DNA of 64,000 nucleotides from Myxococcota bacterium. Lineage in GTDB: Bacteria; UBA10199; JADFYH01. Within the stretch, counting starts at the first letter, position 1, and each line of letters starts with the position of its first letter. The translations under genes were made by a program, and so were the position numbers. The notes under the pieces are model-generated. The model did no database searches. It had not been told where the DNA came from and was given only the letters and a program-made list of their open reading frames with translations. The stretch spans positions 2,016 through 66,015 of the forward strand of contig JBPOIC010000009.1 of assembly GCA_052034865.1 (NCBI GenBank), in the 5' to 3' direction. This document shows positions 59,095-64,000 of the stretch, piece after piece.

Positions 59095-62000
59095 TTAATG
59101 AAGGAGTTTGCGAATCAGCAGGTGCGAAATATAGCTCATATGACCCGTGAGGACAAAACGCTTGGTGATCATCTGAGCCCAGTTGGGATTGTTGTGTTTG
59201 AGCATGCCGCCGTTTTGCTCATCGTGGGCGTCGGTGAGTGCGCCTCCCTGGCCGCCGGAGTTGAATTCATCCAGCAAGACCGCTTCAGGAGAAGGTTTGA
59301 TAAATAAGGCATTGGCTGGAATGTGGCCACTATTGACCACATAGTCTGCATATCCATTCCGAACTTCCCGAAAGGCGTCCGCCAGACTGGGACCCTGAGG
59401 ATCTTTGGGATCGGCCGGGTTTTCCATGAGGACTCGTGCCTTGCCAAAACGATTCATGAGGTTGGCATCCAGCGCATAGCGAACAGGCTCGCCATTCAGA
59501 TTTTCCTGGGTGGGATTCATCGCCACAAAAAGTGCGTCCACAAAAGACAGGCGATATAAAAGAGAGGGCAGATCTCTTAACTTTGTAAATCGCGGGGGAA
59601 GGGGAATGACACTGACTCCGTTTTTGCGCAAGTCCTCCATCTGACTTCTAAATTCAGTCTGGCTGGCAGCGGGCACTTTATCTAGATCCTCATTAAAGTA
59701 ATAAACGACGGGTTGTTCGATGGAGGGATGGAAGAGATTCTTATCAACTGAGAGCCGGAAGGCCAGTTTCATGACTTCTGATTCTGAAAGGCCCATCACT
59801 CCCACACGATCCAGATGAGTCGAGTACGGAATCATATGGGTAAGAGGAATCCCGCGCACGGAAGAAACCCACCCGTAAAGGCCTGAAGCTCCGCACGGCG
59901 CCGAGACAGATCCTCCTGTATCCGTTCCAATCGCCAGGCGTACTGGAAAATCCTTGAGCCCTAAAAGATAGGCCTCTGCAGAAGAAGAGCCTGCGGTATC
60001 ATAGCCTGGTTTTACAGCATTGCCGACGGCCCCGTAGCCGTTTTCAAGCCCGGTTCCTCCCATGGCTCCTGCTGTTAAATTGCAAGGGATGGGAATGTAG
60101 CCTTCTTCGATCAGCTTTTGAACCAGGGGACTCATCGGCATGTCTTCGACATGAAGATTTTTGGATCCGGCATTCACAACCTGATCGAGTCCTCCAAAAA
60201 GATCTTTTACCAAAATGAATCTCTTAACGGTTTTTGTTTGATCTGCTTCGCTCACCAGGGCCTGAATTTTCTTTCCAAGGATTGTGTCTTTAAGACTCCT
60301 TGGAAAAACAGCGCCGTCGTCTGCAACCGGGTGGCTCAAGATCATATTGTAGATATCCTGATGTGAAAAAGCGCCCCGCTGCAATTCCTCAATATATTTT
60401 TTATCGGATAAATTTTTAATCGAGGCACGTGCAGCTTTTCGATTGGCGGTGTCTTCTTCCGCTGCGTGCCTAGCATAAGTGGAGGGGATGGCTGTTTCTG
60501 CCGGGATTTTGCTATCCGTCAAAGGATAGCCATTGTCTTGAAGCCCGTAGCAATCCTTGTAGAGAGTATCTGGAATCTCGTCTTTATGCAGTTGAGGCGA
60601 AAATAAACGGACGTTTTCCTGTAGATCTTTCAAAAGCTCGCGACATAGTTTTAGCTTGGCGTAGGAGTCTGCGAGATAATCGGCTGCTTCCTTGGGCGCC
60701 AGCGGGCGGATGGCCGCGCGGGCACGTTCTATTACGGTCGCCTGATCGCGTTTATTCCAGTAGCGTGTGCGGTCCGCAAGATTTTCATAGAGTGCTGGAG
60801 AGAAATCAAAGCGTAAGCTTCCCCGCAAAATATTGGAGAGTGCAACACCTACGGAGGGTGCAACGCCTACCAACAGTCCCAACGCAAGATTTCCAAGGCT
60901 TTGAGGCGTGGCAGCAGGATTTTGGCTGAACCAGTGCAGACCAACGAGAAAGGGGGTGAGAACAACTCCCAGATTGGCCACCCGAGTGGCGATTCTTCCC
61001 AAATCTTCCTGATAGGCCTTTCTGAAGGCTGAAAAACGGGGCTCACCGCGCCCCTCGTGGACCCAGTTTTCGACGCTGGCGGTCATGCGCCGGACGCGGT
61101 CAAAGGCTTTATCGGCGGATTCTTCAATGTAAGTTTGATAGGCGGGGTTTTGTTTTAAAAACCCTGCGTTTCTCTCTTTTCTCGTTTTTTGGATTTCGGG
61201 ATCGGTTTGATGCCCCTTTGGCTTCAGATGGGCGGGATCTGTTTCAAGCATCCAGTGAGTGAGGGCGTAAAAATCGCTGATCTTCTCCAGGCTCTGATCC
61301 AGGGCATTAGTGGCGAAGTCAATTCTACGATTAAATTCAATTCGTTGTTGAGGAATGAGTGTGAATAAATTTGGAAGCTCAAGCTGACACCTAACAAAAT
61401 CGCCCAGCGCTTTTGAATTTTTTAGAAGTTCGTTTTGTGCCTGATGATAGTTTTCCAAAAGAGCTGAGATTTCCTCAAGGGTTTGAGCCGATCTTTTTCG
61501 TCCACTTTCCACTTCATTCCGAACAATTTCATCTTTTGTTTTGCTGGCATCCAGGGTTTGCCCGTTTGCATTCAAGCTGCTTTCTTTTGCCGCTGCAATG
61601 CGCATGGGTCTTTCATCCCTTTCATCCCGTTGCTCATCAAGGGCCAGCGAAAGTTTGGCAGCAAGTTGTTCGTGAATTCTTTTCAATGCCTGAAATCTGA
61701 TATTCAGACTTCCCAAATAGCGTATCACATGAGTGAATTCGCTCAGTCGACCTGTCTGACTTGCACATTCTTCAAAAAGCACAGCGAGTTGTTTCAGATG
61801 CTTCTCGCTCAACTCCATTGATTTTTTAAGCTCCTTCTCCTGCGATCTCATGTAATCAATCCGACCGATTTTTTCCGCAGAGATTCGTGCCTCTTTTTCT
61901 GCCTGGGCCCCGCGATAGAGGGAGTAGCCCGTCACCGCCGTCGAGCCTAAAGAGAAGAGAAATAAAATTCCATAAGCCAGATGGCCTGCAAGATTTGTGG

Positions 62001-64000: not shown

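Follow-up and report, generated by a model that had tools for sequence, protein, structure and literature searches.

RelA/SpoT-like (RSH) domains are known from ribosome-associated long enzymes, from small soluble synthetases and from toxins on delivery scaffolds. The large delivery scaffolds that bear an RSH domain include XopAD/SKWP, LXG, Rhs/PAAR, MuF and DUF4157 proteins (PMC12691689). The same paper describes exported synthetases and RSH effectors (Apk1/Tas1, SaEAS, AaEAS-LXG and XopAD-Rel) that have a Sec signal or a delivery domain and often an adjoining immunity gene, and none of the architectures listed in the section consulted contains an amidase-signature (AS) domain (PMC12691689). 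The toxSAS toxins are small single-domain small alarmone synthetases (SASs) encoded in a bi- or tricistronic operon with their antitoxin (PMC7229694). The AS fold is itself found in Tse8, a soluble T6SS (type VI secretion system) toxin that is delivered in a VgrG1a-dependent manner and has the immunity protein Tsi8; its toxicity is independent of the catalytic Ser (bioRxiv 10.1101/733030). Here we describe a gene at 59095-64000, minus strand, of a 64,000-nucleotide stretch from a Myxococcota bacterium (contig JBPOIC010000009.1, positions 2,016 to 66,015; hereafter the window), the predicted product of which contains both an RSH domain and an AS amidase domain.

On the minus strand, 59095-63999 translates into 1,634 sense codons that end in a stop at 59095-59097. 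No stop interrupts the frame in 59098-63999 and it is open to the window edge, in agreement with a preliminary description of this stretch, which had noted a minus-strand open reading frame (ORF) of at least 1635 codons leaving the right edge. The same frame is present in the ORF listing from its first GTG. A HMMER search with in-window residues 1-1200 against 1.84 billion protein cluster representatives found P0071, a protein of 3,303 aa that is 100% identical. The window holds residues 1670-3303 and the stop codon of this 3,303-codon gene, and the first 1,669 codons lie beyond its right edge. In-window residue 1 is the codon at 63999-63997, and P0071 numbering is the in-window numbering plus 1669; residue numbers below are in-window unless P0071 is named. 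The full gene, obtained by the extension past the window edge that the preliminary description had proposed, is found at 1041-10952 of contig L006 in the Logan assembly of SRR34217545, and the overlap of this contig with the window is identical base for base. The 3,303-aa product is also recorded from an 87,253-bp NCBI contig. GC and GC3 stay even over the whole length of the gene, the junction of the RSH and amidase parts included, and resemble those of the flagellar genes nearby; GC reaches its minimum, 0.44, in the RSH stretch. The RSH-to-amidase junction lies within the window in a single continuous frame. The 9.9-kb open frame of this giant gene is genuine.

The RSH synthetase-like nucleotidyltransferase domain spans aa 226-424 (62728..63324, minus strand). 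It is preceded by a helical extension at aa ~108-225 (63325..63678, minus strand), which is also present in the giant RSH-bearing relatives described below; phmmer alignments to three of them (P0076, P0080 and P0085) start at query residues 108-165. RSH motifs are defined from the structures of RelSeq and RelQ as RxKxxxSxxxK, DxxGxR, GYxSxH and ExQ(I/V)RT. The motif stretch SGYRGLHLVMDIEGFGLELQIRTRAIDEWDRIQHDLYKAH at residues 350-389 includes GYRGLH (351-356), ELQIRT (367-372), W378, H383 and YK (386-387), and the upstream element TDVCRTRRV is found at 265-273 with D266 and R271. The hallmarks reported earlier (GYRGLHL, LELQIRT, a His/Tyr-Lys segment corresponding to H383 and Y386-K387, and an upstream D-x4-R-R-V element) are thus all present. 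The 10-residue spacing given with them holds between GYRGLH and ELQIRT, whereas GYRGLHL and LELQIRT are 8 residues apart.

The Pfam RelA_SpoT profile (PF04607), named in the preliminary description as a check, matches the query at 23.8 bits (E 6e-5, model positions 36-109 of 113). This is under the gathering score of 27. Its homologues pass. An exhaustive phmmer search found about 20 homologues of the region (P0074-P0095, E 8e-11 to 4e-4), and all seven that were scanned (P0074, P0078, P0081, P0082, P0083, P0085 and P0091) reach 42-67 bits in matches to model positions 1-112. A PDB sequence search with residues 201-450 gave weak matches, of which the best seven are RelP, RelQ or Rel. In a 16-sequence alignment the query keeps 16 of the 16 columns that are invariant in the clade (K244, D266, R271, G351-Y-R, H356, G363, E367, Q369, T372, W378, H383, Y386, G415 and P423), among which, from the RelSeq and RelQ structures, we place the Mg-binding Asp and also the catalytic Glu. 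It also has both K252 and K387, which are nearly invariant. The Arg of GRxK, present in all relatives that cover the position, is His242 in the query, and the Gly position of DxxGxR, which is Gly, Ala or Ser in the relatives, is Arg269. The query has an insertion of ~75 aa between RSH motifs 2 and 3.

The AlphaFold2 (AF2) model of the RSH domain has a pLDDT of 81 and a pTM of 0.77, with pLDDT 86-92 over the catalytic strands. A Foldseek search of the PDB with this model returned RSH-family chains at ranks 1-28 (E <= 1e-3), and all 50 matches listed belong to this family: RelP, RelQ, CapRel, an exported Streptomyces synthetase and FaRel2, followed by SpoT and RelSeq. Nearly all of the structures matched are thus SAS proteins. 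NCBIfam and PADLOC gave weak RSH-type matches only, to a YjbM-type GTP diphosphokinase and to the candidate defence family PDC-S33, and assign no subfamily. In the full 3,303 aa Pfam identifies only Amidase and RelA_SpoT, and none of the other domains of long RSH enzymes (the HD hydrolase and the TGS/ACT-type C-terminal domains). Judged from its conserved columns and predicted structure, this is a bona fide though divergent RSH-like domain with most of the catalytic residues.

A complete AS domain is found at the C-terminus, at aa 1195-1634 (59098..60417, minus strand). The signature consists of AGSSSAEA at 1336-1343 and AIGTDTGGSVSAPCG at 1356-1370. Pfam Amidase (PF01425), a second profile proposed as a check, matches at 64.7 bits against a cut-off of 27, and PDB amidases found by sequence search align over the signature. 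Nineteen amidase-family models of NCBIfam match at E 2e-14 to 0.2, 15 of them at E < 1e-3. The equivalog models score at most 53 bits, far under their cut-offs of 391-680 bits, and for this reason the domain is an amidase that cannot be assigned to a characterised subfamily such as GatA, allophanate hydrolase, FAAH, Pam or IaaH. In a 37-sequence alignment, the conserved triad columns K71, S144 and S170 are occupied by catalytic Lys1265, cis-Ser1338 (Ser1338/1339) and nucleophile Ser1364. Relative to the signature GGSS...GxDxGGS the query has a 2-residue insertion between the two Ser of the triad.

The AF2 model of aa 1195-1634 has a pLDDT of 85 and a pTM of 0.88. Foldseek matches it to allophanate hydrolase, GatA, hydrazidase, malonamidase and FAAH at TM-scores of ~0.65-0.74, confirming the AS fold. 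The values are E 7e-19 and a TM-score of ~0.72 for 4cp8, 3kfu and 6dhv, with a TM-score of ~0.72 likewise for allophanate hydrolase, GatA and FAAH, and the structural matches do not discriminate between amidase subfamilies. FAAH is an AS amidase held at the membrane via an N-terminal helix. Its TM-score of ~0.72 to the query is no better than those of allophanate hydrolase or GatA and indicates no specific relationship. By sequence and predicted structure the domain is a bona fide, complete AS amidase of ~440 aa with an intact Lys-cisSer-Ser triad. The amidase signature with its cis-Ser and nucleophile Ser had been recognised before; the C-terminal ~300 aa then allotted to it fall short of the size of the domain.

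Between the two catalytic domains there are two hydrophobic clusters, which were located with Kyte-Doolittle windows of 19 residues, a crude hydropathy scan. The first cluster, at aa ~466-692 (61924..62604, minus strand), has about 5-6 moderate segments with Kyte-Doolittle means of 1.4-1.8. From aa ~608 (SPAL...HPLFAG) onward it shows homology to the N-terminus of a family of stand-alone amidases, and phmmer matches P0071 2277-2516 to the N-termini of P0072, P0073, P0075, P0077 and P0087. It is followed by a charged linker of 310 aa (aa 693-1002; 60994..61923, minus strand), which aligns with P0072, is rich in E, L, A, R, K and Q (32% D/E/K/R) and is presumably helical or coiled-coil. The second cluster is a two-segment hairpin at aa 1003-1058 (60826..60993, minus strand; means of 1.6-1.9), followed by the motif RGSxRF and conserved in an alignment (A4) of the hairpin and the linker after it with P0072, P0073, P0075, P0077, P0087 and P0002. 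This family-specific linker, aa 1059-1194 (60418..60825, minus strand), joins the hairpin to the amidase. Two clusters separated by a long charged segment, as the preliminary description had them, are therefore present.

The moderately hydrophobic segments lie at residues ~504-522, 580-598, 607-625, 637-655, 671-692, 1003-1025 and 1040-1058. They are rich in Ala, Gly and Ser and have means of 1.4-1.9, whereas their counterparts in P0072, a Myxococcota protein, attain 2.4-2.8. The difference may stem from monotopic or hairpin anchoring or from post-translational insertion, or may have no meaning. Stretches of K/R flank several of them, with six K/R after P0071 2173-2191 and four before P0071 2672-2694, a pattern compatible with a predicted topology of hairpins in which all soluble parts are cytoplasmic. 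An 18-bp tandem duplication (two copies, 88% match) at 60835-60870, inside the second hairpin, encodes a repeated GVAPSVGVAL-type stretch and is probably trivial.

The RSH region (P0071 ~1,780-2,130) matches proteins of 2,273-7,232 aa (P0074-P0091) and a few small ones of 115-805 aa. The closest relatives of the RSH domain together with its N-terminal helical extension have E-values of 1e-8 to 1e-11. The giant RSH proteins come from metagenome-assembled genomes (MAGs) labelled 'Deltaproteobacteria bacterium', 'Deltaproteobacteria bacterium PRO3' or 'bacterium'. Their RSH domain is internal and is accompanied by FHA, PP2C and TPR domains in Pfam scans; one JGI annotation of such a protein also names an adenosine deaminase. 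In one locus (L009 1-20965) two giant RSH proteins, of 3,961 and 3,654 aa, adjoin each other. The query resembles these giants in size and in its internal RSH domain and differs in its partner, which is an amidase and not FHA, PP2C or TPR. In phmmer comparisons the other regions of the giants have no match to the query, and none of the giants matches the amidase module. Smaller members of the clade, P0093 (401 aa) and P0095 (805 aa), have different N-terminal modules; that of P0093 gives weak ParB/Noc-type matches under threshold (TIGR04285, 21.5 bits against a cut-off of 315). P0092 and P0093 match the candidate defence family PDC-S33 at 55-69 bits, and these matches hint at a conflict-system origin of the RSH clade. 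Its phage association amounts to a single weak viral locus.

The amidase module (P0071 2,277-3,299) matches P0072, P0073, P0075, P0077 and P0087 (930-1,235 aa) in phmmer, with E-values of 1e-95 to 1e-140. The matched span takes in the first hydrophobic cluster from its later part onward, followed by the charged linker, hairpin, family-specific linker and amidase. These stand-alone amidases are thus homologous to the C-terminal third of the giant protein over ~1,000 residues, and they lack both the RSH domain and the region N-terminal to it. Genes of the family are located at L010 8001-11420, L011 8001-11237, L002 1-1417, L012 8528-11554 and L007 6323-10030. The L012 gene encodes a 1,008-aa member in a Myxococcota MAG and was found in a search based on alignment A5, which returned two loci only, this homologue and the already known truncated P0001 contig. 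Alignment A4 was too variable to yield search patterns. The catalytic triad is kept in most stand-alone members, and P0087 has a partly degenerate amidase signature (ASDTFGS).

By word-indexed search the nearest relatives of the amidase are P0001-P0003, with 45%, 35% and 31% identity. All three (L002, L003/L004 and L005) are cut at contig starts, at a point inside the amidase module or shortly upstream of it. It seems that assemblies break repeatedly in genes that contain this module, and more fused forms may be hidden. The loci of P0073 and P0075 (L011 and L010) share synteny, with BipA, VanY, Maf and Dus followed by the amidase. P0075 (L010) is directly followed by AcetylCoA_hyd_C and Band_7, and the same pair is found a few genes downstream of P0001 (L002). 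A PMT_2-like glycosyltransferase is next downstream of P0072. The stand-alone amidase loci have no small downstream partner gene.

The remainder of the protein is an orphan N-terminal region of ~1,780-1,830 aa, which contains a hydrophobic hairpin (P0071 1527-1586) and an acidic, Pro-rich linker. It has no Pfam domain, PDB relative or internal repeat, and its homology is limited to one marginal stretch in P0090. Pfam matches to EAD2 (E 0.18), IBN_N and DUF1759 were taken as noise on account of their weak scores.

A word-indexed search with the whole protein and a comparison of the whole in-window protein with genome contigs gave no match, whereas queries made module by module did. When P0071 was compared by phmmer with all matches, the RSH matches and the amidase-module matches were disjoint sets of proteins, and P0071 is the only protein among the 1.84 billion cluster representatives that matched both modules. 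As these sets are disjoint and the amidase module occurs as a stand-alone protein elsewhere, the sequence comparison shows an origin by fusion. The protein, from an uncultured member of the former Deltaproteobacteria, is a chimera that joins three parts with ancestries of their own, namely the orphan N-terminal region, the RSH domain and a pre-existing amidase module of ~1,030 aa. A limited literature text search found no paper on a combination of RSH and AS domains, nor any description of the RSH clade in giant proteins or of the ~1,000-aa amidase family. Within these bounds the earlier statement that no RSH-AS fusion is known is borne out.

The RSH domain has the same fold as the SAS proteins (RelP, RelQ and SAS1-2), CapRel and FaRel2, and the same motifs (K...K, D-x4-R, GY(R)xxH, ExQ(I)RT and W...H..YK), from which it deviates at two ATP-site positions, His242 and Arg269. 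SAS and toxSAS proteins, however, are single-domain proteins of ~200-350 aa that act as soluble oligomers or as toxins of toxin-antitoxin pairs, whereas this RSH domain stands mid-chain together with hydrophobic clusters. The protein is placed outside the toxSAS definition by its 3,303 aa and by the finding that no small same-strand ORF overlaps its gene. It is like the XopAD-type RSH effectors in having an RSH domain within a large multidomain protein and unlike them in that no export signal, delivery domain or immunity gene was found. The preliminary description had set ToxSAS and Tas1-like effectors apart as small and soluble. That account is incomplete, given the RSH domains on large scaffolds (PMC12691689). 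The AS fold is common to Tse8 and the query, and the immunity gene of Tse8 and its association with T6SS and VgrG have no counterpart at the query locus or among the window ORFs examined.

We tentatively propose, with a probability of roughly 0.45, that the protein is a cytoplasm-facing, membrane-anchored bifunctional enzyme that acts in the cell that produces it, in a signalling, stress or conflict role. The hydrophobic segments would form helical hairpins that tether it to the cytoplasmic membrane of the producer, and the soluble parts, including both catalytic domains, would lie on the cytoplasmic side with ATP at hand. This topology is suggested because the segments can be paired into hairpins and the N-terminus has no signal sequence. 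With ATP as the donor, the RSH domain would pyrophosphorylate a purine nucleotide at its 3'-OH, and the product would be (p)ppGpp or (p)ppApp; the 3' end of tRNA is a less likely acceptor. The Lys-cisSer-Ser triad of the amidase would hydrolyse an amide substrate at the membrane. Action in cis, and not as a classic exported toxin, is favoured because there is no delivery domain and no immunity gene, because the stand-alone amidases have a housekeeping synteny, and because related RSH domains keep company with FHA, PP2C and TPR. Those RSH domains are internal, not C-terminal, and the domains they co-occur with are ones of intracellular signalling. The evidence from context leans away from a classic toxin.

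Several observations weigh against a cis-acting membrane enzyme. The topology comes from a crude scan and the segments are only moderately hydrophobic (1.4-1.9). Moderate hydrophobicity is also a feature of translocated membrane effectors. The Pfam RSH score of the query is itself under the cut-off, no other member of the clade has an RSH domain as divergent (28% identical to the giants, which share 44% with one another), and with two ATP-site substitutions (Arg to His and Gly to Arg) the domain could be weak, inactive or altered in specificity. Both folds have toxin precedents, the RSH fold in Apk1/Tas1 and the exported synthetases (PMC12691689) and the AS fold in Tse8 (bioRxiv 10.1101/733030). 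Finally, the fusion is a singleton without an orthologue, so that its conservation cannot be used as functional evidence.

It is unlikely, in our estimate, that the protein is instead an effector or toxin delivered, whole or as a released part, into a competitor, prey or host cell. The hairpins would then insert in the target membrane, the RSH domain would drain ATP, make toxic (p)ppApp or (p)ppGpp or pyrophosphorylate tRNA, and the AS domain would damage another target, such as the transamidosome, with which Tse8 interferes. Both folds do serve as antibacterial toxins (RSH on Rhs/PAAR, LXG, XopAD, MuF and DUF4157 scaffolds, PMC12691689; AS in Tse8). The protein is a giant, fast-diverging singleton with an orphan N-terminal region, its hydrophobic segments (1.4-1.9) are weaker than those of P0072 (up to 2.8), and small relatives in the RSH clade match PDC-S33. 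In classic polymorphic toxins, however, the toxin domain is C-terminal, whereas this RSH domain is internal and is followed by more than 1,100 residues. Pfam finds no secretion-associated or delivery domain in the full protein, and no signal peptide was found in the polar N-terminus, where the first hydrophobic segment comes only at P0071 residue 1527; export by an unconventional route is conceivable. No small antitoxin or immunity ORF adjoins the gene on its strand, the upstream neighbour being divergent and the downstream one a superoxide dismutase, and the homologues of the amidase module stand in housekeeping synteny without partner genes. Flagellar export genes are the sole secretion system found among the window ORFs examined, which comprised those of 150 aa or longer at 40-59 kb and, in other parts of the window, ten that were scanned with Pfam; T6SS is among those for which no gene was seen.

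We regard it as improbable that only the amidase is catalytic and that the RSH domain is degenerate, with a nucleotide-binding, structural or regulatory role. The divergence of the domain within its clade, its score under the Pfam cut-off and its GC of 0.44, the lowest of the gene, would fit such decay, as would the two residues seen in the query alone, His for the invariant Arg of GRxK and Arg for Gly, Ala or Ser in DxxGxR. Yet all 16 invariant columns are kept, including Asp266, Arg271, GYR, His356, Glu367, Gln369 and Thr372, the fold is predicted with confidence (pLDDT 86-92 on the catalytic strands), and a long undecayed reading frame argues for selection. An artefact, in which misassembly joined separate genes or an error deleted a stop or a frameshift, is very unlikely because the frame is continuous, GC and GC3 are even and the product is recorded from two contigs. 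The sequence is metagenome-derived, and P0001-P0003, all broken at contig ends, show that assemblies fail in such genes. The RSH/amidase junction is nevertheless inside the window in one frame with even GC and GC3 across it, the same 3,303-aa product comes from the 87-kb NCBI contig and the Logan contig (possibly from shared reads), and an in-frame chimeric join that keeps 3,303 codons open would be very improbable.

Within the proposal of a membrane-anchored enzyme of the producer cell, a narrower version is that both domains are active, the alarmone synthesis or tRNA pyrophosphorylation of the RSH domain being coupled to the hydrolysis or binding of a membrane-proximal amide at the AS domain. 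We hold this version to be conceivable but doubtful. If it is correct, the protein would represent a new architectural class of RSH beside the long RSHs, the SASs and the small alarmone hydrolases (SAHs). Within an unrecognised RSH clade that occurs in signalling giants of 2-7 kaa with FHA, PP2C and TPR domains in the uncultured former Deltaproteobacteria, it would moreover be the most derived member. If the domains are active, the chemistry of alarmone synthesis or pyrophosphotransfer could be wired to a membrane-localised hydrolase. A giant RSH-amidase anchored by hairpins fits none of the three known forms of RSH protein named at the outset. Both folds, multidomain RSH proteins and AS-fold toxins are already known; what is new is the presence of both folds in one chain, on a giant scaffold predicted to be anchored by hairpins. 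The comparison also reveals two further uncharacterised families, the RSH clade in the FHA/PP2C/TPR giants and the membrane-associated amidases of ~1,000 aa. The biological weight of the fusion itself is limited, as it is a singleton from one metagenome-derived genome.

A gene for an Fe/Mn superoxide dismutase (sodA) is found at 58395-59018 on the same strand, 76 nt downstream of the giant gene. The two genes are not separated by a terminator-like site, and sodA is immediately preceded by a promoter-like site. The position of sodA is as the preliminary description had it, and the link to a stress-response factor that it drew from the adjacency is not supported, as the adjacency is kept in none of the relatives. 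For the same reason, and because of the promoter-like site, sodA was rejected as a functional partner. Upstream and outside the window, at L006 305-874 (minus strand), a divergent gene encodes a 189-aa protein that has a zinc-ribbon-like CxxC...CxxC N-terminus and matches PilZ at 22.8 bits, right at the cut-off; the match suggests that it binds cyclic-di-GMP. The cognate small immunity or antitoxin ORF that had been sought in this upstream position is absent, its place being taken by the PilZ gene.

Elsewhere the window is occupied by a very large cluster of flagellar and glycosylation genes (8800-58200). Pfam identifies FlgK (14919-16325), MotB (18844-19968), a DegT aminotransferase (27161-28441), FliF (30961-32445) and FliK (36744-38168), and the hook protein FlgE (38928-40193) was read from its translation. 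FliP, FliR, FlhB, FlhA, FlhF and FliA (43278-50523) were also recognised from translations, with Pfam backing for FlhA (PF00771), FlhF (SRP54) and FliA (sigma-70 regions). Sugar-modification genes, including the DegT aminotransferase and glycosyltransferases, are interleaved with the flagellar genes. Two paralogous ORFs of ~630-650 aa at 52937-54883 and 55034-56923 are maybe flagellin-glycosylation factors. A response regulator (2170-3705) and a sigma-54 activator (3809-5299) are located at the left end of the window. The nearest relatives of FlhA, at 60-69% identity, are from MAGs labelled 'Deltaproteobacteria bacterium' or 'bacterium'.

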